Positions 1 to 24,340 of a stretch of 24,340 nucleotides of DNA are shown in pieces (the stretch's first letter is position 1; every line of letters starts with the position of its first letter). Location: assembly GCA_041746575.1 (NCBI GenBank), contig JBGTGT010000066.1, positions 1 to 24,340 of the forward strand. Direction: 5' to 3'. The DNA comes from Microcystaceae cyanobacterium. GTDB lineage: Bacteria; Cyanobacteriota; Cyanobacteriia; Cyanobacteriales; Microcystaceae. The notes beneath the pieces were generated by a model that did no database searches, was not told where the DNA came from, and was given only the letters and a program-made list of their open reading frames with translations. The position numbers were made by a program, and so were the translations under genes.

Positions 1-43
1 TTCCTACTAATACTATATTAATATCAGATTTTGTAAATAAAAG

Positions 44-75
44 ATACCAGATAGTTAAATTATACTATCTGGTAT
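44..75 (-). terminator. Intrinsic terminator after the IS110 recombinase gene
   Basis: 12-bp perfect inverted repeat ATACCAGATAGT (44-55) / ACTATCTGGTAT (64-75), followed on the minus strand by CTTTTATTT, just past the stop at 82. Confidence 0.7.
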
Positions 76-81
76 TTAATG

Positions 82-1527
82 TTAAGGTTTTTTCTGCATT
101 AATAAATCGGGGTTGATTTCTTTACCTTGCCAGATAACCAGTAAGATTTTCCAGAGAATTTTAATTGCTTTATCAATGGCTCTGCTGGCTAAATATTCTT
201 TAAGCTTTGCCTGAGTTTTAGAAGCTTTAAGTGCTTTTGAAGGTTTGCGCTTTGCTTGGATGGCATCGGTGATAATTTCCTTAAAAAAGCGATTTTGAGG
301 TTTGTCATCGACAATTTCGTCAATCTTGCTTAATATTGCATCATCCATTGCCATTAAGCTTTTAAGTTGTGCGTAGGCCGGATCAGCTTCCTTCCAGTAA
401 GATTCAGTAATAAGCTTTAATACTGCTGATTTTCTCAAAATTCCTTTACTGCCTACTTTTTCCCTGATTATCTTACTTATTCCCCATTGCATTAGAGTTA
501 ATTTGATTTCCTTATTTCCTCTAACTACTTTGATGGTTGTTTGTCCTGAAGATTCCTCAAATAATCCTCGTCCCATCAGGCAATGAAAATGGCGGTAACC
601 GATTCTTTTTGTAACGGGGTTTCCTTTTTTGGTCTTCTTTCGTTTAAAGATTGAGCGTTTTTCTTTTAAATCTGGTGTTAAAAATTGTTCAAAAGGGTAA
701 ATCTGACATAATGTGATTACTCGATCATAGACCCCAAATTGTAACCAATCGAAACCTTGATTGTATTTATCAAATTTCTTTATTTTGATGATTTCTTGCA
801 AGCATTGACGAATTCTGGCTCGTTCTCGTTGCATATCGTCTATCGTTCGGGCTAAGATAATTAATTCCTCGCTAAATTTCTCTGTTCTTTTATAACTTCC
901 GATATCTTCGGTTAATCGGGTTTTGTATCGGTTTTTTGTGTCTCGTCCGGCGATCCATGTCCATAGAGGCGTTATTCTGTATTCTCCACAAAAATCAATT
1001 TTTCTTAGGCAGGGTGCTTCTGTTTTTAATAAGTTTTTGGCGTGGTTAACCAGTTGTCTTATTCTTCTATTGATTCTTTCCTTTTGTAAAAACAGTTGAT
1101 AGGCGGTTTCTAGTTCAGGAATTCTGACACGGTTATAGTAGCCTAAGTCTTGGTCAAGTTCCCGTCTCCAACCGTCATAAGCGATGGCTACTGCATCATG
1201 TTCATCATCGGACATATCCCAGCCACAATTCTTTCTGATAGCGATAATCATGTTATTTTTAATGATTCTGACTTCTTTTCCTGCTCGTCTGAGTTCATCT
1301 TCGATATTCTTAGAATATCTTCCTGTTGGTTCGAAGCAGTAGATATCGCCGAGATGGATCAATAGTTCCATACTGCTTTTAGTATCTTTGATATCATGGA
1401 AGTCACAGATATCGAAAAAGTCTTTAGCCTTGCTGGTGGGGTATTTGTTATAATCTTCGTGAGTCAGTCGCACGGCAACAGATCGGTCTTCGCTCACGTC
1501 GATTCCGATGATAATGGGTTTATTCAT
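82..1527 (-). CDS. IS110-family DEDD recombinase/transposase (bridge recombinase), 481 aa
   Basis: RuvC-like DEDD motifs GID10VS, FE66PTG and D108EHD111A; coiled-coil middle; C-terminal GLFEESS327G matching the IS110 catalytic-serine loop, followed by GN. Confidence 0.88.
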   Translation of the reverse strand: MNKPIIIGIDVSEDRSVAVRLTHEDYNKYPTSKAKDFFDICDFHDIKDTKSSMELLIHLGDIYCFEPTGRYSKNIEDELRRAGKEVRIIKNNMIIAIRKNCGWDMSDDEHDAVAIAYDGWRRELDQDLGYYNRVRIPELETAYQLFLQKERINRRIRQLVNHAKNLLKTEAPCLRKIDFCGEYRITPLWTWIAGRDTKNRYKTRLTEDIGSYKRTEKFSEELIILARTIDDMQRERARIRQCLQEIIKIKKFDKYNQGFDWLQFGVYDRVITLCQIYPFEQFLTPDLKEKRSIFKRKKTKKGNPVTKRIGYRHFHCLMGRGLFEESSGQTTIKVVRGNKEIKLTLMQWGISKIIREKVGSKGILRKSAVLKLITESYWKEADPAYAQLKSLMAMDDAILSKIDEIVDDKPQNRFFKEIITDAIQAKRKPSKALKASKTQAKLKEYLASRAIDKAIKILWKILLVIWQGKEINPDLLMQKKP

Positions 1528-1554
1528 AGTAAAAACGGTCTAAGTGGGTGGATA

Positions 1555-1848
1555 AAGCTTGATTCGTCTGTGAATGACCAAAGACTGCGTTAAGCGTCTG
1601 ATTCCTACTTAAGACTCTCTATCAAGCTTGAGGGAAAACCCTCGTGAGACTGTGGCTAAACAGTCCCAAGAGGTAACCGACCTTAAGTGAGTTAACTGTT
1701 GGGAGTGTTTAAAAGTGAGAAGTTAAGCGTCTGTGAAAGGACTAAGACTCCTTAAAAAGCGTCTGTTTCATTTAAAAGACTCCTTAACTTCTCGGTGTTT
1801 GTTGGTCATTTAGCCATGACTGTGGGATGTGGGATAGAAGCCTATCCC
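1555..1848 (-). ncRNA. Putative bridge RNA: target-binding loop (1717-1793) and donor-binding loop (1555-1629) plus accessory hairpins
   Basis: Four CGTCTG-N10-AAGACT units. Closing stems are AAGCTTGAT/ATCAAGCTT (9 bp) and GAGAAGTTAAG/CTTAACTTCTC (11 bp). The variable 10-mers match the element ends and the host flank. Strand and RNA ends are inferred, not observed. Confidence 0.85.
1565..1781 (+). repeat. Four CGTCTG-N10-AAGACT units (1565-1586, 1595-1616, 1728-1749, 1760-1781)
   Basis: Read directly; the 10-mers are TGAATGACCA, ATTCCTACTT, TGAAAGGACT and TTTCATTTAA. Confidence 0.97.
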
Positions 1849-1887
1849 CTTAGTCTCTCAATTCAATTGAGTTAAGAGACTAAGGGG
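1846..1887. repeat. 13-bp perfect inverted repeat (hairpin) upstream of the guide loops
   Basis: CCCCTTAGTCTCT (1846-1858) / AGAGACTAAGGGG (1875-1887). Could be a 5' stem of the RNA or a processing/termination site. Confidence 0.8.
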
Positions 1888-2019
1888 GTGGGTTTCATTT
1901 GTTGAGATAAAGTATTGTATTGCCATAGCTCCTAAGATACAGATTAATCCTGTAGAGATAAGTGCTTTGAGTGCTTCTAAATTCGTGTTAATCTCCTTTA
2001 GTAATTCAAGTTCTGTCAT
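1858..2019 (-). CDS. Small putative membrane protein, 53 aa (MTELELLKEINTNLEALKALISTGLICILGAMAIQYFIS...)
   Basis: Manual translation; starts 5 nt after the upstream RHH gene stop; one hydrophobic segment; 3' end overlaps the 1846-1887 hairpin. Confidence 0.5.
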   Translation of the reverse strand: MTELELLKEINTNLEALKALISTGLICILGAMAIQYFISTNETHPLSLLTQLN

Positions 2020-2024
2020 AATTT

Positions 2025-2171
2025 CTAGATATTGGGTAATGATTTAATCCAGTTACGGATTAAATCGGATTTGGTGATCCTACAGATTTGAGCATAGCGA
2101 TTAAGTTTGGCCTCCTGTTCGGGGCTGATCCTCGCTCGTAACCAAGTGTTAAAGGTTTTGTCTTCAGTCAT
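2025..2171 (-). CDS. Ribbon-helix-helix (CopG-like) DNA-binding protein, 48 aa
   Basis: Manual translation MTEDKTFNTWLRARISPEQEAKLNRYAQICRITKSDLIRNWIKSLPNI: alternating beta strand, helix, then the TKSDLIR motif typical of RHH proteins. Confidence 0.75.
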   Translation of the reverse strand: MTEDKTFNTWLRARISPEQEAKLNRYAQICRITKSDLIRNWIKSLPNI

Positions 2172-2223
2172 CTGTAGTCATCTGTTAATATGAGGGCGTT
2201 TTTGTAATTTAATTCGGTTCAAT

Positions 2224-2260
2224 ATAGGGGGCGATCTATTTGGAGTAGATCGCCCCCTAT
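2224..2260. repeat. 15-bp perfect GC-rich inverted repeat (candidate packaging/origin hairpin or operator)
   Basis: ATAGGGGGCGATCTA (2224-2238) / TAGATCGCCCCCTAT (2246-2260) with a 7-nt loop; function inferred only. Confidence 0.7.
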
Positions 2261-2310
2261 TTGATGTGAATAGCCTTATCGCTTTTTATTTTTTCTTGTA
2301 GAATAAGGTC

Positions 2311-2338
2311 ATCATACACAAAAAAAAAAAACAGTCAA
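2311..2338 (-). promoter_or_regulatory. Sigma70-type promoter for the leftward operon, with a homopolymer spacer
   Basis: Minus strand TTGACT (2338-2333), 16 nt, TATGAT (2316-2311); the spacer contains a 12-nt T run (A run 2320-2331 on +). Confidence 0.6.
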
Positions 2339-2379
2339 TATTCTTTCAATTTTTTACATAGTGTTAAGGATGGTTAGGT

Positions 2380-2718
2380 ATGCTAAAGAAAGAAGGTAGG
2401 GGGCGACCAAAAGGATCTTTATCGAGCAGAGTAGGCAAGACTCAAGCTAGTATAAGCATGTCCGCTGAGGCGTGGGCGATTCTCACTAAGCGAGCTAAGG
2501 ATTTAGGCGTTTATAAGAGTGATTATATTGAAAATTTGGTGCGTCGTGGCGATAATGTTACTTACGATTTATCTATTTCTTTTCTAATTGAGATGGTAGT
2601 GAATTTGGAAAAGGATATTATTTCTTTAGAATTGACGAAAGTGGAATTACAAGAAAAAGCAGCAGATATCCGTAAATTTTTGCGAGAAATAGGCGTAAGT
2701 CCTAATATAATGCCTTAA
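2380..2718 (+). CDS. Putative RHH-type regulator with a GRPKG N-terminal arm and C-terminal coiled coil
   Basis: GRGRPKG, then ASISMSAEAWAILTKRAKDLGVYKSDYIENLVR (RHH pattern), then heptad-spaced leucines. Confidence 0.65.
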   Translation: MLKKEGRGRPKGSLSSRVGKTQASISMSAEAWAILTKRAKDLGVYKSDYIENLVRRGDNVTYDLSISFLIEMVVNLEKDIISLELTKVELQEKAADIRKFLREIGVSPNIMP

Positions 2719-3017
2719 ATTATGAAGGAGGCGTGAGATTGATAGCTAGGACGGTGTATTTAGCGTTTTTTCTTGGGAGATTAGTAAAAACAGTCAGCTA
2801 TCAGTCTCCGTCTCCCCCTCACAAAAGGCGTAAAGGGGGCTTTATGCGAGGAACGAGCTTATCCCCGTTGCTTTATAGATAAATCTCATTGGTAAAGATT
2901 TGTAATTGTATCCCTCAGTGATTTTCCCCTTATTTTTATCAATTACTATCGGGTATTTTAAAACTAACAGCAGGTTAAATGATCACCTAGTTGGTTAACA
3001 ATAGCTAAAAATGCTTT

Positions 3018-4004
3018 ATGTCTATCTCCTGTCGCTTTGATTACCTTCAAGGTACGTTTTACTTTAGCGAGCTTGACTTTTTCTCTCGATTGCTTGATAA
3101 ATTATCAGGGCTGTTGTTTCCGGTCGTGGATCAATGGTTTTGGCTAGATCATGGGATGTTTAGCGGTGAGTTTTTCTCTCGTGCGTTTACCTCTTTAAGT
3201 GGCTTTCGGGGTGGCATACGATGGGATAGAGATCAAGGCAAATATCGGGGAATTTTATTTATTTCTGGGCAATTTTTAGAATGCTTAGATGCATCTTTAC
3301 AGCGTCGTCTTGTTTGCGCATTAAAGCGATTACAATTTCGGTTTACTCGTGTTGATGTTTGTCTTGACGATTGGAATAGGCGTATTCAGTTTGAATGGGT
3401 TAAAAAGGCAGGTGATAAGGGACTGTATCGCTATTTTCAACACTTTGATTATCGGGCTTCTTGCTTGAGTAAGACAGATCAAATTGTGCCTACTTGTGTG
3501 TTTGGTGCTGATCTTTCCGATAAAAAATTGAGATTTTATAATGCTGAGGCTGTTCATGGCTTTTTAGCGGATCGGTGGGAGCTTCAACTCCGGCGTGATT
3601 ATGCCCAAAAAGTGATTGATGATTATTTAAGTTTAGGGGCTTCGGTTCTTCCAGCGTTTGTCGTTGGAGCAATTGATTTTGTAGAGTTCAAAGTTAAGCT
3701 AACCCGTGATTATTGTCGAGTTGCTTGGTGGCAATCGTTGATAGATGCTGTTGATTTTGAACCCAGACGAATATCTGTCAAGCCGTCTGTGCCGAATATA
3801 GATCGGGTTTTAGTTTGGCTTCAGAAACAAGTTGCTCCTAGTCTAGCGGTTCTTCATGAGGGTATGGAGTCCGAAACGTTTGAAGCTTACGTTCGGTTCT
3901 TAGTTGAAGATGGCATTTGTCGTTTTCAGGATAAGCATTCTGCTTTAATTACTCGTCTTCAATCTGTTGACGATTCAGATTTATTAAATGAAGGAGAAAG
4001 TTAA
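3018..4004 (+). CDS. Rolling-circle replication initiator, Rep_trans family
   Basis: Motifs FTRVDVCLDD, TCVFG...S.KKLRFYN (catalytic Tyr), RWELQLR and WLQKQVAPSL. Confidence 0.88.
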   Translation: MSISCRFDYLQGTFYFSELDFFSRLLDKLSGLLFPVVDQWFWLDHGMFSGEFFSRAFTSLSGFRGGIRWDRDQGKYRGILFISGQFLECLDASLQRRLVCALKRLQFRFTRVDVCLDDWNRRIQFEWVKKAGDKGLYRYFQHFDYRASCLSKTDQIVPTCVFGADLSDKKLRFYNAEAVHGFLADRWELQLRRDYAQKVIDDYLSLGASVLPAFVVGAIDFVEFKVKLTRDYCRVAWWQSLIDAVDFEPRRISVKPSVPNIDRVLVWLQKQVAPSLAVLHEGMESETFEAYVRFLVEDGICRFQDKHSALITRLQSVDDSDLLNEGES

Positions 4005-4610
4005 ATGTCTCAAATTGTTTTTTGTGTAGAACATCAAAATTATACTCGTAAAAATGGGGATGAAGTTGACAATTACATTTGTCATTATTTTGATCCTTCA
4101 GAATTTGAAAATTCGGCGTTATATAAAGGGGTTCAGCTGTTGAATAAAGTTTCTTCTTTAGGCTTTGAGAATTTTCCCCATGTTCCCGGTGTTTATGAAA
4201 TGTCTTCTCGGCCTTTAAAGCGGTTTGGTAATTTTGTTTCTTCTCTTAAAAGTTTGCGTTTTTTGAAGTCTGTTGATTCAATTGTCCCTAAAGGAGAATA
4301 CTTTATTGTTTTTGGGGTAAGGGTTGTTTGTAATTATAAGCCTCTTAATTCTACTCAAGTTTTAAATGGGGTCAAATTTTTTGCGATTGATCCGACGGGT
4401 TCTGATAATTTAGATATTAAAGGTTATCCTGTTTTTGAGCAATTTATTTCGGGATTAACGCTTGATAGTTTTCCAAAAATTCCTGCTTATTATGATTTTC
4501 AGTTTAAAGAAAAGCGGGGTAAAAATGGCGAAGCTATTTTAGAGGTAGTTAGTGTTCAGTATGTTGAGTCCTTTTTTAATTCAGAAAGTCTTAGTCAGGA
4601 AGGTGAATGA
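4005..4610 (+). CDS. Putative ssDNA-binding protein (pV-like) made of two tandem homologous domains
   Basis: Directly follows rep. An internal repeat IVF.V..NY...N...DP...KG...FP..P..Y occurs twice; beta-rich and aromatic. Function inferred from position. Confidence 0.6.
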   Translation: MSQIVFCVEHQNYTRKNGDEVDNYICHYFDPSEFENSALYKGVQLLNKVSSLGFENFPHVPGVYEMSSRPLKRFGNFVSSLKSLRFLKSVDSIVPKGEYFIVFGVRVVCNYKPLNSTQVLNGVKFFAIDPTGSDNLDIKGYPVFEQFISGLTLDSFPKIPAYYDFQFKEKRGKNGEAILEVVSVQYVESFFNSESLSQEGE

Positions 4611-4738
4611 TGATCACTGATGATCAAGCGATTCAATTTATCATCTTTCTCTGTCAGTCTATTAGAGATTGTTTGATGTTAATTTACTTTGTAGCTACTG
4701 GCATTAAAATCATGAATTTTTTCCTAATAGGATTGTAA
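4607..4738 (+). CDS. Small hydrophobic protein, 43 aa (minor virion protein candidate)
   Basis: Manual translation MMITDDQAIQFIIFLCQSIRDCLMLIYFVATGIKIMNFFLIGL; ATGA overlap with the upstream stop. Confidence 0.65.
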   Translation: MMITDDQAIQFIIFLCQSIRDCLMLIYFVATGIKIMNFFLIGL

Positions 4739-4741
4739 ATA

Positions 4742-5011
4742 ATGTGCTTATCTTTTTCCCTTACTCTTACAGGTTGTAAATCTCGTGATCTTGATGTTTT
4801 AAAATCTGTAATTTCTCAGATTTCTACTCAATTAGAGATTAGTAAGCCAGAATTTTCTATTACACAATGTAATATTGATTTTTGTTGGGATATTAATATG
4901 AATAATTTATTTCATATTTTTGTTTCTTCATCGACAGAAATCATTTTCACAATTTTATTATGGCTAGTTTTCCATTTATTTTATTCAGCGATTCCAAGTC
5001 AGTCTAAATAG
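4742..5011 (+). CDS. Small phage protein with a C-terminal TM segment
   Basis: ORF track; IIFTILLWLVFHLFY hydrophobic stretch; start uncertain (alternative ATG at 4898). Confidence 0.55.
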   Translation: MCLSFSLTLTGCKSRDLDVLKSVISQISTQLEISKPEFSITQCNIDFCWDINMNNLFHIFVSSSTEIIFTILLWLVFHLFYSAIPSQSK

Positions 5012-5019
5012 GAAGAAAA

Positions 5020-5193
5020 ATGTTTTTATTTAAAATGATGATTGCCTATTCTAAGGCTAAATTCTTAGGAATTCCGTTACCTTTTTTCCCAATTTTATTA
5101 TTGGTCGCGTTTATTATTACTTGGGAGATTGTTAAGCGAAGACCAACCAAAAGGAGAAAAAATGCTCGCCGTAAAGTACCTCGCCGAAATTAA
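5020..5193 (+). CDS. Small TM protein with an Arg/Lys-rich tail, 57 aa
   Basis: Manual translation MFLFKMMIAYSKAKFLGIPLPFFPILLLVAFIITWEIVKRRPTKRRKNARRKVPRRN. Confidence 0.6.
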   Translation: MFLFKMMIAYSKAKFLGIPLPFFPILLLVAFIITWEIVKRRPTKRRKNARRKVPRRN

Positions 5194-5329
5194 ATTTAGT
5201 GAAATTCAATTAGATCCTCCCAAAGAATTTGTAGATTCTAATTTTATCGCTCACATTCAGCCTCATTTTGTTACTTTCTTATTCGCTTTAGCCTCAATTG
5301 CTATTTTCAGAAAACTTACAGGTATTTGA
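5162..5329 (+). CDS. Small virion-like protein, 55 aa, C-terminal TM and basic end
   Basis: AGGAG RBS before ATG 5162; ends ...FVTFLFALASIAIFRKLTGI. Confidence 0.7.
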   Translation: MLAVKYLAEIKFSEIQLDPPKEFVDSNFIAHIQPHFVTFLFALASIAIFRKLTGI

Positions 5330-5331
5330 TC

Positions 5332-5550
5332 ATGAATTCTTGCTATTTAATTGATGATTCTTGCCAGTGTGGTAAAAATTTATCTGGTTCCAATCCTTGT
5401 TTTGATATTGGCGGCGGCAATATTAGCGGTGGCCAGTTTGGCGATCAGGCCGTTGGAGCTTTTGGCGGTTTTTTAGGCTCTAATCCGGGGCTGGTTGGTG
5501 CTTTGGGGTTATCGTTGGGTGTTGGATTTTTGATGAGGGCTTTTAAATGA
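5332..5550 (+). CDS. Small Cys/Gly-rich virion-like protein with C-terminal TM
   Basis: MNSCYLIDDSCQCG...C; Gly-rich; ends GLSLGVGFLMRAFK. Confidence 0.7.
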   Translation: MNSCYLIDDSCQCGKNLSGSNPCFDIGGGNISGGQFGDQAVGAFGGFLGSNPGLVGALGLSLGVGFLMRAFK

Positions 5551-5714
5551 TTTTCTATTTTCTTCAATCCGATTCTACCGCCAAAGCTTTAGAGGATATC
5601 CAGTCAATGCCTCAATTCTTTGCTGATGCGATCAACTGGGGAATTGATGCTAGTTACGTGGCTGTTGGTTTTATGGCTTTGCTCGCTCTTGGTGTTTCAA
5701 TGTTTAAAAGGTGA
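5547..5714 (+). CDS. Coat-like small protein, 55 aa
   Basis: Manual translation MIFYFLQSDSTAKALEDIQSMPQFFADAINWGIDASYVAVGFMALLALGVSMFKR: acidic/amphipathic N-part, TM, basic end; ATGA overlap. Confidence 0.7.
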   Translation: MIFYFLQSDSTAKALEDIQSMPQFFADAINWGIDASYVAVGFMALLALGVSMFKR

Positions 5715-5719
5715 GAAAA

Positions 5720-5854
5720 ATGGTTCCTAAAAAATTAGAAAAAACAACTGATTATTTGGATTTAACTTTGATTGTATGGATGATAGCTACTCAATTAATT
5801 ATTACCTATACTTTGTCAAAAATATTGATTATTTTGTCAATTTCTCCACACTAA
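5720..5854 (+). CDS. Small hydrophobic protein, 44 aa
   Basis: Manual translation MVPKKLEKTTDYLDLTLIVWMIATQLIITYTLSKILIILSISPH; AGGTGA RBS-like sequence upstream. Confidence 0.6.
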   Translation: MVPKKLEKTTDYLDLTLIVWMIATQLIITYTLSKILIILSISPH

Positions 5855-5930
5855 AGGCTTGTCCGGACAAGGGTTTTTTGAGTTCCTAAAACTCAGCTGT
5901 ACTTACCACTTACTTTTTGAGGTGAAACTA

Positions 5931-6179
5931 ATGAAATCAATGAATTTTTCGCAAAAAATGGTCTTAGGATCTGCTACTGCTATCCTTGTAGTCCTTGGAT
6001 CTGCTGGCGTGGCGGGTGCTTGGGGTAAATCAGATTATGATCAAGAACTTGAAAAAGTTGGCGCATTTTCTGATGCAATTGGTGCTATTGTAGCGTCAAT
6101 GACTACAATTGCTATTACGCCTATTGGTATCGGTGCGGCTGTCAAAACGTTTCGCCATATCGTTCTTAATAACGTTTAA
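5931..6179 (+). CDS. Major coat protein candidate (pVIII-like) with signal peptide
   Basis: GAGGTG RBS; 30-aa leader ending AGA; 52-aa mature part with acidic N-terminus, Ala/Ile/Gly-rich helix and basic KTFRH; followed by a terminator as in Ff phages. Confidence 0.75.
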   Translation: MKSMNFSQKMVLGSATAILVVLGSAGVAGAWGKSDYDQELEKVGAFSDAIGAIVASMTTIAITPIGIGAAVKTFRHIVLNNV

Positions 6180-6186
6180 TTTTTAG

Positions 6187-6208
6187 GGGGGGAATATCCC
6201 CCCATTTT
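6187..6208 (+). terminator. Terminator-like hairpin after the coat gene
   Basis: GGGGGGA-ATA-TCCCCCC followed by ATTTT. Confidence 0.55.
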
Positions 6209-6211
6209 CTC

Positions 6212-6571
6212 ATGAAAAAGTTATTTTCTCGTTTTTTAGCTGGATTAAAATATGGTTTTTTAGGGATATTTATCTTTTTTATTCTTTTTAAACCTGTATA
6301 TGCTCAAGATTTACAAGTCGATGTAGAAATTGGCCCTCGTTTTGATCCTGATGATCAGTATGTTATTACGAGTTGTATGAGCGAGAACTGGGATAATATT
6401 TTTCCTCTAAATTTCGTCTCTGAATACGAACCTCAGCCTATTTCTGCTGATTGCCCTAAGTTAGAAATTTTTAATAATAATTATGAGGCTTGTTACTTAA
6501 TAGATATTTACGAAATAATTGAACCGGCTATTTTATTGGGACTTTTTACTTATGCTATTATCCATCTTTGA
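6212..6571 (+). CDS. Short pIII-like protein (signal peptide, Cys-containing ectodomain, C-terminal anchor)
   Basis: Leader ending VYA; acidic region with 3 Cys; C-terminal ILLGLFTYAIIHL; lies between coat and pVI-like genes. Confidence 0.55.
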   Translation: MKKLFSRFLAGLKYGFLGIFIFFILFKPVYAQDLQVDVEIGPRFDPDDQYVITSCMSENWDNIFPLNFVSEYEPQPISADCPKLEIFNNNYEACYLIDIYEIIEPAILLGLFTYAIIHL

Positions 6572-6821
6572 TTTTTTTTCCTACTATTTTCTACAAGAAC
6601 AAATGCCTGCTTATGGTGAATGGGCCTGTAATTTATCGTCTCGGTGGGCTTTTCAATTATTTCCCTCTACTCACACAATTAAGAGTTTATCAGATCAATT
6701 ATCTGGCAATATTCCTTTTTTGGGTGATTATCTAATTTTTAAGATGATCAATAATATTTGGGATCTACTTTGGTGCGTTGCTACTTATAAAGTTATTAAA
6801 ATTATGCCGGGCAAATTCTAA
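6552..6821 (+). CDS. pVI-like minor virion protein
   Basis: Hydrophobic ~89 aa ending WCVATYKVIKIMPGKF; upstream of the ATPase; ATG 6552 preferred over TTG 6519. Confidence 0.6.
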   Translation: MLLSIFDFFSYYFLQEQMPAYGEWACNLSSRWAFQLFPSTHTIKSLSDQLSGNIPFLGDYLIFKMINNIWDLLWCVATYKVIKIMPGKF

Positions 6822-6991
6822 TGTGGCGATATTTTCTCTTAGTGGGTTTAGGCTTTTTATTAAATTTTTGTACGATGCAACCTAAAGTTATGGTTAAGTG
6901 TGCTGTCAATAAAGGTAAAAATTATCCAATTTATTATTATTATTCTCACTCTAAATGTGTAGAAATTGAGAAAATTTTAAAAGGAGAGTAA
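6821..6991 (+). CDS. Small membrane/lipoprotein-like protein, 56 aa
   Basis: Manual translation MWRYFLLVGLGFLLNFCTMQPKVMVKCAVNKGKNYPIYYYYSHSKCVEIEKILKGE; TAATG coupling to the upstream gene. Confidence 0.6.
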   Translation: MWRYFLLVGLGFLLNFCTMQPKVMVKCAVNKGKNYPIYYYYSHSKCVEIEKILKGE

Positions 6992-6997
6992 AAAGTA

Positions 6998-7822
6998 ATG
7001 GGCGTTTTTATTCAGGGCATAAATGGCATAATTGGTGAACAAGGATCAGGAAAAGGTTTTGCTATGTTGAAAATTGGTCTTTTGTATGCTAATCAAATTC
7101 AATATGATCTTTGTTTTAATTTTGAAATTGATGAAAAGGCTTTGTATAATTATTGTTTGGAAATGGGATATACATGGCTATTAAGCAGAATACTACATAA
7201 TAAAATAAGAGTAAAGAATAGTAAGGATTTAATTAGTTTTATGGATCTGCCTAAGACGATTTATATATTAGATGAAGCCGGTGTTTATCTTAATTCAAGG
7301 CGTTTTCGTGATATTGATCCTGACTTTTTACATGAAATCGCACAAGTAAGGCATGATTGTAAATTGCTTTGGTGGGTCGCACAATATCCTGAAATGGTTG
7401 ATAAAATGCTAAGGAGCCTTACCGCTTCTTTTATCCAAGTTGATGGCAAACAAAGATTTAATAAAAAATTAGGAAATTCTGAATTAATTTGGCAGCGTAT
7501 TTATTTATTTAATGCTCGAAATTTTAATATTTATTTATCTAAGGTTCATGATAAATTTACAGGAATTAAATACTGGTTGAATGCTCGTAGATTGGCTGAT
7601 TTTCACTGGGAAGGGGTTCTCGATTATTCTGATAAAATGATTTTTGATATTTATCAGAGTTTTGGTTACAGAGTGGGTGATTCAGTTGTGAAACAAATTA
7701 AAAAACATAAGCACAATTCAAAATTAATTTATGTTAATTATCCTTCTAAAATTCTGGAAGAATCTAATGATCAAGAGAATTCTATTATTCCTATTAAGCT
7801 CGACGTTTCTCACTTATTTTAA
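6998..7822 (+). CDS. Zot/pI-like morphogenesis ATPase
   Basis: Walker A GEQGSGKG, Walker B IYILDEAG, RH...AQ....DKMLR motif; AGGAG RBS. Confidence 0.9.
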   Translation: MGVFIQGINGIIGEQGSGKGFAMLKIGLLYANQIQYDLCFNFEIDEKALYNYCLEMGYTWLLSRILHNKIRVKNSKDLISFMDLPKTIYILDEAGVYLNSRRFRDIDPDFLHEIAQVRHDCKLLWWVAQYPEMVDKMLRSLTASFIQVDGKQRFNKKLGNSELIWQRIYLFNARNFNIYLSKVHDKFTGIKYWLNARRLADFHWEGVLDYSDKMIFDIYQSFGYRVGDSVVKQIKKHKHNSKLIYVNYPSKILEESNDQENSIIPIKLDVSHLF

Positions 7823-8360
7823 TGGTTTAAAGGCTTATGCTTATGCTTATCCTAATCCTAATCAGTTTTTTGTAGAGGGATTTAATTCTGCTGGATCTGT
7901 AAATTCTTTTCTGCAAAAATGGGAAAATTATATTAACGGATTTCCTAAAGATCCTAATAAGTTTCCCTGTAACTGTAATCCTGTTTTATTTGCTAGATTT
8001 TGGAACTATTACGATCATCCAGATTATTCAGCGTGGGATCATTATGGTAAAGAAGAGGGGAATTCAGATACGGCTACTTTTCGCAACGGAGGTTCGTGTA
8101 AATGGAAAGTTGCTATTAACGAGTTTAACTCTTCGATACTTTCTTCAGAGTTTAGTGCTTTGGTTGCTGCTTATAGCAAGTCGTATCATTATTTTTCAGC
8201 ATCCTTTAATTACAATGTTCCCGGCGGTATTTATGAGGGCGATCTTGAAAAATGTCGTTCTAACGCTCCACCGTTTTCACCTAATGATCCGGGCAGTTGT
8301 CCACGGGTAAATGTTCGGAGTCTTCCAGTTGTTCGTGTGCGTGTTACTTGTACTCAATAA
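7767..8360 (+). CDS. Secreted Cys-containing hypothetical phage protein
   Basis: MIKRILLFLLSS...AYAYA signal peptide; 6 Cys; rich in Asn, Tyr and Trp. Confidence 0.65.
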   Translation: MIKRILLFLLSSTFLTYFNGLKAYAYAYPNPNQFFVEGFNSAGSVNSFLQKWENYINGFPKDPNKFPCNCNPVLFARFWNYYDHPDYSAWDHYGKEEGNSDTATFRNGGSCKWKVAINEFNSSILSSEFSALVAAYSKSYHYFSASFNYNVPGGIYEGDLEKCRSNAPPFSPNDPGSCPRVNVRSLPVVRVRVTCTQ

Positions 8361-8372
8361 AGAGGTTTTATT

Positions 8373-8825
8373 ATGAGGGGTTTTACGTTAGTTGAGACTA
8401 TGGTGGCGGTTTTAATCGCTGGTGTTTTGGCGACGATTGCTGTTCCTCAGTTACAGGGAATTGTCAAGGCGCAATCTGAGGGATATGAGATTGAGCAGAT
8501 TCAAGATTTTATTAAGATAGCTCAAAGGAATGCAATCCGGCGTTCACAAGGCTGTCAGGTTGATTTCGTTGTGTCTGGTCAAAAGGTTTCGGGGCTTGGG
8601 TCTAACTGTGATGGGGTCACTCAGCAATTAAGGATTGAGCAAGATATTAATTATGTTGGTAGTCAAGTTATAGATTTTAATTTCCGTGGTTATGTGGTTA
8701 GTTCTGCTGGAGCTCTTAGCCGTGATTTTGAAACTTTATTTTTCTCTAAGAGTTATTGTGTTGTTGTGGGTACTAATATCGGTTTGATCCGCAAGGGGGT
8801 TTATTCTGGATTTTGCAAGATTTAG
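8373..8825 (+). CDS. Type IV pilin/pseudopilin-like protein (FimT/GspH-like)
   Basis: Prepilin cleavage/methylation motif MRG|FTLVE followed by a hydrophobic helix to AVP; AQRNAIRR motif; 4 Cys; GAGG RBS. Confidence 0.88.
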   Translation: MRGFTLVETMVAVLIAGVLATIAVPQLQGIVKAQSEGYEIEQIQDFIKIAQRNAIRRSQGCQVDFVVSGQKVSGLGSNCDGVTQQLRIEQDINYVGSQVIDFNFRGYVVSSAGALSRDFETLFFSKSYCVVVGTNIGLIRKGVYSGFCKI

Positions 8826-8881
8826 TATAAGTTAACTATTTATTTGTCTTACTTAAGTCGGTAAGTTGTCTTACTCTTGGG

Positions 8882-9238
8882 TCATTCGTTTAAATACCAA
8901 AGCACAAAAACTGCCAACAAGACAACAGTAAAAACGACAGTAGTTGTTACCAAACTAACGCCAAAACCGTCTACCAATTGATCCGTAATTAATGTACCAA
9001 CAATACTTATTAAAATAACCACCAGCCAGTAACTTAAGGGGACATACCGTTTAAGTCTAAACTGATTGAAAAGAGCCATCAGTAGCAAACCCCCCATGAG
9101 ATAGGATGTAATGCCTAAACCAAGATTCATTGTAAAGGCCAAAAAATCAGCCCCTGTTTCACCTACCGTGGTGGCTAGAACTTTAATAATCCAGAAATAA
9201 AATGTTACGTCTGGAACCCTATTTAACATTTTCCTCAT
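8882..9238 (-). pseudogene. 5' half of a DUF347/COG4705 membrane protein gene, truncated by the prophage
   Basis: MLNRVPDVTFYFWIIKVLATTVGETGADFL signature; ends abruptly at WYLNE with a stop supplied by element sequence. From memory of the family, it normally continues E[K/R]TLS and is about twice as long. Confidence 0.85.
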
Positions 9239-9323
9239 GATATTTTTCCTTAGTCCTATCATTGATGACTTCATCATCAAAGGAAAAAATCAAGAACTTA
9301 AAAAGATCTGGCTCTTAAAATAG

Positions 9324-9403
9324 GGCGTTGCTGAATAAGAGGGGGATCATGACCCTCAAAGCCAGTAAACTCGTACAAAAACCACTCCAAAATCAGCGAC
9401 GCT
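9324..9403. repeat. Possible ~80-bp MITE-like element
   Basis: Imperfect terminal inverted repeats GCGTTGCTGA (9325-9334) / TCAGCGACGC (9393-9402). Confidence 0.4.
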
Positions 9404-9675
9404 TAATGGTAGGGGTGCGTATATTTGCGCCAACAAATAGGTTACATTAGTTTGCAATTCGCGAGGCTCATCTTTCAGAACCTTAAAGGGCTAAAAATCT
9501 TGCTGTCAGAGGTTCTTAGCGTAGTTGTCGTTTCCCCTGTAAACTGAGTTAAGTCATCCTTTAAAGGGAAAAAGATAGGTTTTAGGTTTTCAGTTTGGGG
9601 CAATCGGCTTAAAACCTTACACCTGCTCCTCCTAACCTATCGCTTACACCTTGTCAAATCCGTTTTTTTAAGTTA

Positions 9676-24241: not shown

Positions 24242-24340
24242 TCCATAACTGCATAATCGTTGTGCTTGCGCCATATTCGTAAAACCCGCTTCTCGGTACA
24301 GATTAATGGCTAAATCCCTTGTAATTGCCCATAGATTCGG
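24201..24340 (-). mobile_element. End of an ISAs1-family insertion sequence (partial transposase 24206-24340)
   Basis: Minus frame PNLWAITRDLAINLYREAGFTNMAQAQRLCSYGLKQILVLFRMK* resembles cyanobacterial ISAs1 C-termini; CAGGGC terminus at 24201 directly beyond the stop codon. Confidence 0.75.

Follow-up and report, generated by a model that had tools for sequence, protein, structure and literature searches.

A stretch of 24,340 nt of DNA from a hot-spring Microcystaceae cyanobacterium (hereafter, the window) was analyzed; it is the entire contig C66 of a 134-contig assembly of the source genome (G000, whose contigs are designated by C-numbers) and its position 1 is therefore a contig end. Positions 1-8887 probably correspond to an inovirus-like prophage whose lysogeny module consists of an IS110-family recombinase and a minus-strand bridge RNA, and which has recombined into a membrane-protein gene of the DUF347 family at a shared GAA trinucleotide. 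In the proposed mechanism, the guides of the donor loop would address the two ends of the phage (..AGTAG-GAA and GAA-TGACC..), which would be adjacent in a circular phage genome, and the guides of the target loop would address TTAAAT-GAA-AGGAC(T). Recombination at the shared GAA core would then put the phage into the DUF347 gene at TTAAAC-GAA-AAGACA, and a conservative exchange at this 3-nt core would restore an intact open reading frame (ORF) of 266 amino acids (aa). The evidence consists of the anatomy of the prophage, its junctions, both halves of the split gene, the homology shown by the recombinase family and the recurrence of the same guide logic in three relatives. From these observations we infer that the RNA is produced and directs the enzyme, and that the gene would be restored by running the reaction in reverse. 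Besides the assembly, the contigs of four sequencing runs of one study were examined, including Logan contigs of three hot-spring metagenome runs (X1-X3) that are possibly the source of the assembly.

Prophage boundaries and the split DUF347 gene

The two boundaries of the element were set independently of the guides, by a contig branch on the left and by a gene break on the right. On the left, contigs C123 and C120 both carry window positions 1-141 and part company right after GGAA. On the right, the host gene resumes at 8888, and in a fourth run (X4) other DNA follows position 8887. The right phage/host junction (8879-8894) reads GGGTCATTCGTTTAAA, and the GAA core was found at both junctions. 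No terminal inverted repeats were found at the element ends. A subterminal 17-nt inverted repeat lies about 50 nt from each end (51-67 and 8823-8839, 16 of 17 positions identical), its left copy being located in a terminator-like hairpin after the recombinase gene. Among the 12 ORFs scanned with Pfam, NCBIfam and PHROGs, no tyrosine or serine recombinase family was found.

The coding (minus) strand of the truncated DUF347 gene ends TGG TAT TTA AAC GAA TGA, i.e., ..WYLNE*. The flank lying to the left of position 1 was found on C123, the first 141 nt of which are the exact reverse complement of window 1-141. Past this overlap, C123 reads AAGACATTAGCGATGCACTCT.. (a stretch also given as AAGACATTAGCGATG.. 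and AAGACATTAGCGATGCAC..), which translates to KTLAMHSIN.. in the frame of the gene, and its start bears the other two DUF347 repeats of the genome (Pfam, E 8.3e-29 for the ORF from its Met). Four DUF347 repeats were detected in all, two on C66 and two on C123, each above the cut-off, and the real host target, TTAAAC-GAA-AAGACA (peptide LNEKT), lies between the second and the third. When the halves were joined in silico with GAA kept once, a stop-free ORF of 266 aa was obtained, which aligned without gaps to five of five intact orthologues (259-264 aa) with 72.5-85.3% identity. The empty site reconstructed in this way is ..TTAAACGAA joined to AAGACA...

The initial annotation of the window had predicted the unseen left flank from the guides. 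The rest of the gene is indeed present there and in frame, but in window orientation this flank ends with TGTCTT and not with AGTCCT (4 of 6 positions), and the expected peptide LNERT is correct for LNE and T with Lys in place of Arg. As that annotation had pointed out, the visible part of the gene differs from the guides only by AAC in place of AAT, both of which encode Asn. It had also proposed that the family continues with E[K/R]TLS, which proved close: seven orthologous sites, in six other genomes of the family, all read x-x-E-[K/R]-T-LAMHSINT, and none of them ends at WYLNE. Its view that the gene was disrupted upon integration agrees with the split at the junction, the N-terminal half being on C66 and the C-terminal half, the remainder of the DUF347 gene, on C123. 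A DUF347 orthologue was detected in 7 of 89 genomes of the family, G000 included, and the gene is thus accessory. No empty allele was obtained from two genomes of the same genus (92% and 77% complete), in which no DUF347 orthologue was found.

In the integrated state, the C-terminal half forms an ORF of 130 aa (C123, positions 154-546) with a Met start 12 nt beyond the junction, this Met being conserved at all seven orthologous sites. Its distance from the recombinase gene, which is upstream of it and co-oriented, is about 95 nt; therefore, read-through could express it. The N-terminal half is open too.

The recombinase, the bridge-RNA-like region and their relatives

Judged by homology at the profile level, the recombinase is a member of the IS110 family. 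The NCBIfam model NF051857 (“IS110 family transposase”) was covered from position 1 to 391 out of 393, with a score of 175.9 bits for a cut-off of 180. A profile of 22 members matched the recombinases of ISCro4 (9t56, E 1.5e-9) and IS621 (8wt6, E 1.2e-6) over positions 5-166, i.e., the DEDD domain, and PDB searches with the single protein or with a 3-sequence profile returned nothing relevant. At E ≤ 1, PF01548 was matched by 22 of the 22 members (best 5.5e-14, the window protein alone reaching E 0.53) and PF02371 (Tnp) by 15 of them (best 2.6e-5, the window protein being without match). Residues E66, D108, D111, S327 and G328 are invariant in the 22-member alignment and D10 is nearly so. The S327-G328 pair aligns to ..ESGS.. 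of IS621 and ISCro4, but solely within a second, weak stretch of the alignment (i-Evalue 24 and 260), the aligned serine being one that we take to be the IS621 nucleophile. A class-wide search (E ≤ 1e-20) found the recombinase family in 43 of 401 cyanobacterial genomes. In this wider cyanobacterial family, the GTCTT-N10-CAGAC frame described below was present upstream in 0 of 29 loci taken from these genomes, making these loci unusable for a test of the guides.

The non-coding region upstream of the recombinase gene is predicted to fold on the minus strand into two guide-bearing parts (Table 1). In the target part (1793-1717), an 11-bp stem surrounds an internal loop that contains the two target guides and an inner hairpin; a middle hairpin comes next, and in the donor part (1630-1555) a 9-bp stem surrounds a second internal loop with AAGTAGGAAT and TGGTCATTCA. 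At E ≤ 1, Rfam gave four weak matches, none of them relevant to this region. The two target guides, of 10 nt each and overlapped by TGAAA, assemble to TTAAATGAAAGGACT, which is the reverse complement of the AGTCCTTTCATTTAA reported in the initial annotation. The resulting prediction, TTAAAT-GAA-AGGACT, agrees with the real site at 12 of 15 positions. On the left side, 5 of 6 target positions match (6 of 6 with G.U), so that every one of the ten bases of the left guide is paired, one of them as rU.dG. For the right guide, 7 of 10 positions pair with the actual top strand CGAAAAGACA, namely the core GAA plus A and, after one rC.dA mismatch, GAC, both outermost positions being unpaired. The minus strand is favored because the region is located upstream of the recombinase gene and co-oriented with it, because of the order and polarity of the loops, and because a four-sequence consensus contains 9 G.U cells against 3 A.C cells, the latter being G.U on the opposite strand. 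The wobble at the target, put forward earlier as an argument for this strand, does not discriminate: the left mismatch wobbles on the minus reading and the right one, rC.dA on the minus strand and rG.dT on the other, only on the plus reading, so that the wobble count at the window target is neutral.

Table 1. Features of the prophage, its recombination module and the interrupted host gene (window coordinates).
Feature	Position	Strand	Evidence
Inovirus-like prophage with both 3-nt core copies (TTC on the + strand, 1-3 and 8885-8887)	1..8887	.	contig branch and gene break
Left element end, core and left donor	1..9	.	reverse complement TAGTAGGAA
IS110-family (DEDD) recombinase, 481 aa	82..1527	-	NCBIfam NF051857, E 1.4e-51
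Bridge-RNA-like non-coding region	1555..1793	-	fold of minus strand, z -4.15; upstream of recombinase
Right donor guide TGGTCATTCA	1571..1580	-	GGTCATTC identical to window 8880-8887, 8 contiguous bases
Left donor guide AAGTAGGAAT	1601..1610	-	9/10 against element end ..TAGTAGGAA, counting the T that follows in a circle
Right target guide AGTCCTTTCA	1734..1743	-	framed GAGTCTT..CAGACGC
Left target guide TTAAATGAAA	1766..1775	-	framed GAGTCTT..CAGACGC
Rolling-circle replication initiator (Rep_trans)	3018..4004	+	PF02486, E 1.2e-15; 38% identical to Rep of the Pannus brasiliensis element
P-loop protein, weak likeness to Zot / M13 protein I	6998..7822	+	PHROGs phrog_20922 (1.1e-4), phrog_197 (2.7e-4), phrog_1675 (8.7e-3)
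Right element end, right donor and core	8879..8887	.	GGGTCATTC
N-terminal half of DUF347 gene, 132 aa, two repeats, stop TGA from the element	8882..9280	-	PF03988, E 3.5e-30
Left target half of host site (TTAAAC on coding strand)	8888..8893	-	junction sequence

Homologous recombinases preceded by the same four-guide frame were found in Pannus brasiliensis (35% identity), in a metagenome-assembled genome of Crocosphaera (39%, partial) and, as a paralogue, in G000 itself on contig C26 (34%). In each of the four elements, the left donor predicted by the third guide was recovered at 5 of 6 positions in the DNA downstream of the recombinase gene (20 of 24 in total). The right-target flanks agreed with the second guide at 4, 5, 4 and 3 of 6 positions, i.e., 16 of 24, whereas the twelve mismatched pairs gave 10 of 72 (binomial, 2e-5 to 1.6e-3). 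The outermost base of this guide is missed in all four; the effective right-target guide is therefore probably shorter than initially assumed. RNAalifold runs on the four target loops and the four donor loops gave the internal-loop architecture; 5 of 15 and 5 of 13 pairs, respectively, show compensatory changes, a modest support for a consensus structure from four sequences, and the outer stems of the guide loops differ in sequence among the elements with pairing kept. The Pannus element also carries a Rep_trans gene at the equivalent relative position, and from the identities of its Rep (38%) and recombinase the module and the phage appear to have diverged together. Further relatives were sought elsewhere: two peptide patterns retrieved no relative from metagenome_contigs, the genome_contigs search gave two loci only, and the guide-frame pattern matched 27 loci in viral_contigs, which by eye are mostly direct repeats in G+C-rich DNA without a bridge-RNA-like context.

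Two further recombinases of the family are present in the source genome. The C26 copy (2048-3448) sits just upstream of a gene resembling, by eye, translation initiation factor IF-3. The other, of 415 aa, is located on C90 with a different upstream region; this contig ends inside phage-like DNA and its last 141 nt are in common with the end of C91.

Specificity of the address, a second insertion and alternative explanations

Every GAA in the genome, on both strands, was scored against the guide prediction at 12 flank positions. The score of the DUF347 site, 9 of 12, was reached by 110 of 176,766 GAA sites (6.2e-4), and by 30 sites when only five right-target bases were counted. Simple complementarity hence ranks the DUF347 site in the top 0.06% without singling it out. 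The three differences between guides and allele are an Asn-synonymous third base, AGG versus AAG (Arg or Lys, both of which occur in orthologues) and a Thr-synonymous third base. These differences keep the protein motif of the family, which suggests that the guide is adapted to a sister allele of the DUF347 gene. Among orthologues, the left-target half is not conserved and the guide 15-mer matches 7-12 of 15 positions. The 12 of 15 of the G000 allele is the top match, tied with one of the seven orthologous sites, whose left-target mismatch cannot wobble. A guide-perfect DUF347 allele was found at none of the seven orthologous sites and, with one degenerate 26-nt pattern, in none of the metagenome contigs. 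The initial annotation had described the phage as programmed for a conserved accessory membrane gene. That the module addresses the DUF347 gene and that this gene is accessory is retained; the wording is too strong in view of the variable left-target half, of better sites that are unoccupied in the assembly and of a second site that the guides do not match.

This second site was revealed by C120, whose start is also the reverse complement of window 1-141 and continues with TACGATGGCG.., 120 nt upstream of psbU (PF06514, E 3e-42). The depth in runs X1, X2 and X3 was 52.7, 26 and 63.9 over window 1-1866, 29.4 + 29.5, 11.4 + 10.3 and 36.9 + 33.7 for the two flank contigs at position 1, and 35.8, 20.3 and 42.7 for the long contig running from 1888 into the host. 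With the proviso that contig depth is not equal to copy number, the mean depth of the long contig is that expected for two phage copies and one host copy, with an implied host depth of 27, 12 and 32, respectively. In run X4, the phage has a depth of about 7-8 and the host part 9011-9514 of 2.4-3.3, and the DNA joined after 8887 is absent from the assembly. The flanks seen in X4 and on C120 may be the two sides of one site. By synteny, the gene upstream of psbU in two genomes of the same genus matches contig C3. The start of C3 (1-250) reads by eye like the 3′ end of a transposase gene, and positions 142-200 recur on four other contigs, a repetition that would explain why the short piece from phage to repeat is missing from the assembly. 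Contigs C56 and C54 also have their first 141 nt in common, with parts on three further contig ends. The upstream DNA of psbU in the same-genus genomes was too diverged for a comparison of the empty site. As for a second bridge RNA dedicated to this site, no framed copy of the site sequence was found in the genome and its complementarity to the RNA region was not beyond chance. Half-match insertions and a class of insertions with no match (“none”, 27 of 168 sites) are described for IS621 in the available text of preprint 10.64898/2026.08.31.748434; if the puzzling second site is one site, it would fall in this latter class.

Several observations weigh against a guide-directed insertion as set out above. 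The window recombinase falls about 4 bits under the NCBIfam cut-off and has no significant Pfam match by itself (E ≤ 0.01). The right-target match past the core is imperfect (4 of 6), and 11 GAA sites outscore the DUF347 site, the best of which (G000:C40:38156, TTAAAT-GAA-AAGACT, 11 of 12) is intergenic, with an ORF on either side, and has no insertion in the assembly. At the second insertion, the left junction (C120) and the right junction (X4) have only the core in common with the guides (2 of 12, below the genome median of 3), and its flanks agree with the donor guides at 2 of 6 and 1 of 6 positions (partly counted by hand). Folding is equally good on the plus strand (z -4.20) and on the minus strand (z -4.15). 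The far, left-target junctions of the three relatives were not located, with chance-level matches in Pannus, whose contig ends 8.7 kb upstream, nothing within 9.9 kb in Crocosphaera and too short a contig for the C26 copy; the left-target guide is thus tested in the window alone. Finally, neither the circular junction nor the empty site turned up, be it in the assembly or among contigs from the four runs, contigs in which rare forms are dropped, so that such an absence says little. Precise excision, as suggested in the initial annotation, would restore the in silico ORF of 266 aa.

These points bear on three other explanations. It is unlikely, although the least improbable of the three, that the bridge RNA and the recombinase are real but that site choice needs little beyond the GAA core, or a match to the left half, the DUF347 gene being one of many near-cognate or off-target landings for which the guides are not programmed. 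The low score of the second insertion, the 110 genome sites that fit equally and the 11 that fit better, the half-match and “none” insertions of IS621 and the lack of a perfect cognate allele would all be understandable in this case. However, a random GAA site attains the observed fit at a rate of only 6e-4, the guide 15-mer reads LNERT in the frame of the gene with its three differences falling where the motif x-x-E-[K/R]-T tolerates them, and the allele carried by the host genome itself is among the two closest to the guides.

Instead of serving as minus-strand RNA guides, the four framed 10-mers could also act from the opposite strand or as DNA, for example by binding the recombinase or as copied attachment half-sites. 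Equal folding of the two strands and a wobble count without preference for the minus strand fit such a role, which we nevertheless consider improbable: the bridge-RNA layout given in the available text on IS621 (position, loop order and 5′/3′ guide polarity) is matched on the minus strand only, the G.U cells outnumber the A.C cells in the consensus, and outer stems that vary in sequence keep their pairing. Some inoviruses use host recombinases, and integration by host XerCD (CTX-type), by the Rep protein or by homologous recombination would reduce the likeness of guides and flanks to chance; a single hexamer reaches the 4 of 6 of the unseen flank by chance with p ~0.04-0.12. Such an origin is very hard to reconcile with donor guides that match both ends exactly at independently defined boundaries, with the same guide logic in three relatives, with a site inside a coding sequence with a 3-nt core common to both junctions, and with the absence of terminal inverted repeats.

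Beyond guide-directed insertion into the DUF347 gene, a broader picture can be offered as a tentative proposal, which we regard as possible but not as the probable case. The prophage of the window, the Pannus element and perhaps more would belong to a lineage of cyanobacterial filamentous prophages in which a stable lysogeny module of bridge recombinase and RNA co-diverges with the backbone; the address would be a coding hinge between the DUF347 halves, both of which stay open, and the second site would represent a natural guide-independent insertion.

Relation to known systems and other features of the window

Bridge RNAs of IS110 elements are established (PMC11208160, PMC11208158), and in the IS621 RNA, as described in the available text, target recognition falls to the first loop and donor recognition to the second (PMC11208160). 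The module of the window resembles IS621 and ISCro4 (PDB 8wt6, 9t56) by the homology of the DEDD recombinase at the profile level. It also shares with the IS621 layout described in PMC11208160 an upstream non-coding RNA with two internal loops, the target loop coming first, and guides of which the 5′ one is the sense of the left half and the 3′ one complementary to the right half, each extending over the core. The donor guides match the element ends, terminal inverted repeats are absent and the core is found at both junctions, as in IS621. On the other hand, the window protein (481 aa) has a long C-terminal extension and by itself diverges too far for Pfam or PDB matches. Instead of the CT dinucleotide of IS621, the guides overlap here by 3-4 nt (GAA, GAA, AAT and TAA in the four elements, AA being common), and all four guides are set in the same GUCUU-N10-CAGAC frame. 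Between the element end and the RNA there are about 7 kb of phage genes, so that a circle-junction promoter cannot adjoin the RNA, and the element targets a coding sequence.

The available text of PMC7058167 and PMC11437467 describes, for Neisseria (Nf/MDA) and Thermus (phiOH16, Zuza8, Zuza27), filamentous phages in which an IS110-family transposase lies opposite the replication gene; this transposase is considered responsible for integration and to act in excision as well. The prophage of the window is similar in having a small genome of the filamentous type with the initiator toward one of its ends and at the other the IS110-family transposase. It differs from them in its cyanobacterial host, and in that the guides and both junctions are laid out here, no guide RNA being described in the available text of those two reports. 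The tblastn searches with the recombinase and Rep against 50,697 deposited phage records gave no match with either protein, and no recombinase relatives were found in viral_contigs. IS110 elements with up to ~100 kb of partly phage-like cargo, whose internal non-coding regions contain guides complementary to the target flanks, have also been described in a 2026 preprint (10.64898/2026.08.14.744561). In common with the prophage of the window, they appear in the available text of this source as a recombinase and a bridge RNA moving many kb, with boundaries that often fit only partly; what is carried here is an entire rolling-circle phage genome, co-diverged with its recombinase, and not resistance or plasmid DNA picked up by accretion.

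CTX-type inoviruses integrate at dif via host XerCD. Like them, the prophage is of the filamentous type and integrates while lacking its own tyrosine or serine integrase; unlike them, it brings its own recombinase and a predicted RNA address, and its site is a protein-coding gene and not dif. A full-text literature search, supplements being outside its reach, returned no paper laying out the bridge RNA of a filamentous phage. With both filamentous-phage IS110 transposases and cargo-bearing IS110 elements published, such an RNA was expected in principle and not yet shown.

If upheld at the bench, the module would provide a worked natural example of a phage with a bridge RNA as the address of its attachment site, for which the two junctions, the sequence of the empty site, the set of guides and, for comparison, three relatives are already available. 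It would also offer a divergent pair of recombinase and RNA from a hot-spring metagenome, in which a simple frame is repeated around every guide, as well as a natural test of the right-target mismatch that is tolerated. The second, unguided insertion bears on the off-target question debated for IS621, and the IS110 transposases of the Neisseria and Thermus filamentous phages may merit inspection for a similar RNA.

Within the 8.9-kb element, a run of short plus-strand ORFs extends over 4742-6821, with transmembrane segments judged by eye, and the P-loop ORF at 6998-7822 has no Pfam or NCBIfam match. A promoter and terminator scan gave sites no more numerous than in shuffles. The last prophage gene (8373-8825, plus strand) encodes a type IV pilin-like protein of 150 aa with a prepilin-type N-terminal methylation motif (PF07963, E 8.4e-6) and ComGD/GspH-like NCBIfam matches. 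Phages of the filamentous type often use pili as receptors. The last 60 bases of the window (24281-24340) recur at the ends of C4 and C98, so that its right end is also a repeat branch of the assembly. Finally, an 81-nt stretch at 1837-1917, which contains a long perfect hairpin (..CCCCTTAGTCTCTTAACTCAATTGAATTGAGAGACTAAGGGG..), is identical to G000:C90:~32860-32950, upstream of the third IS110-like recombinase (27% identical). In the runs, it forms a contig of its own, with the highest depth of that stretch, and it could be a shared phage origin, a packaging signal or a recombination hot spot.

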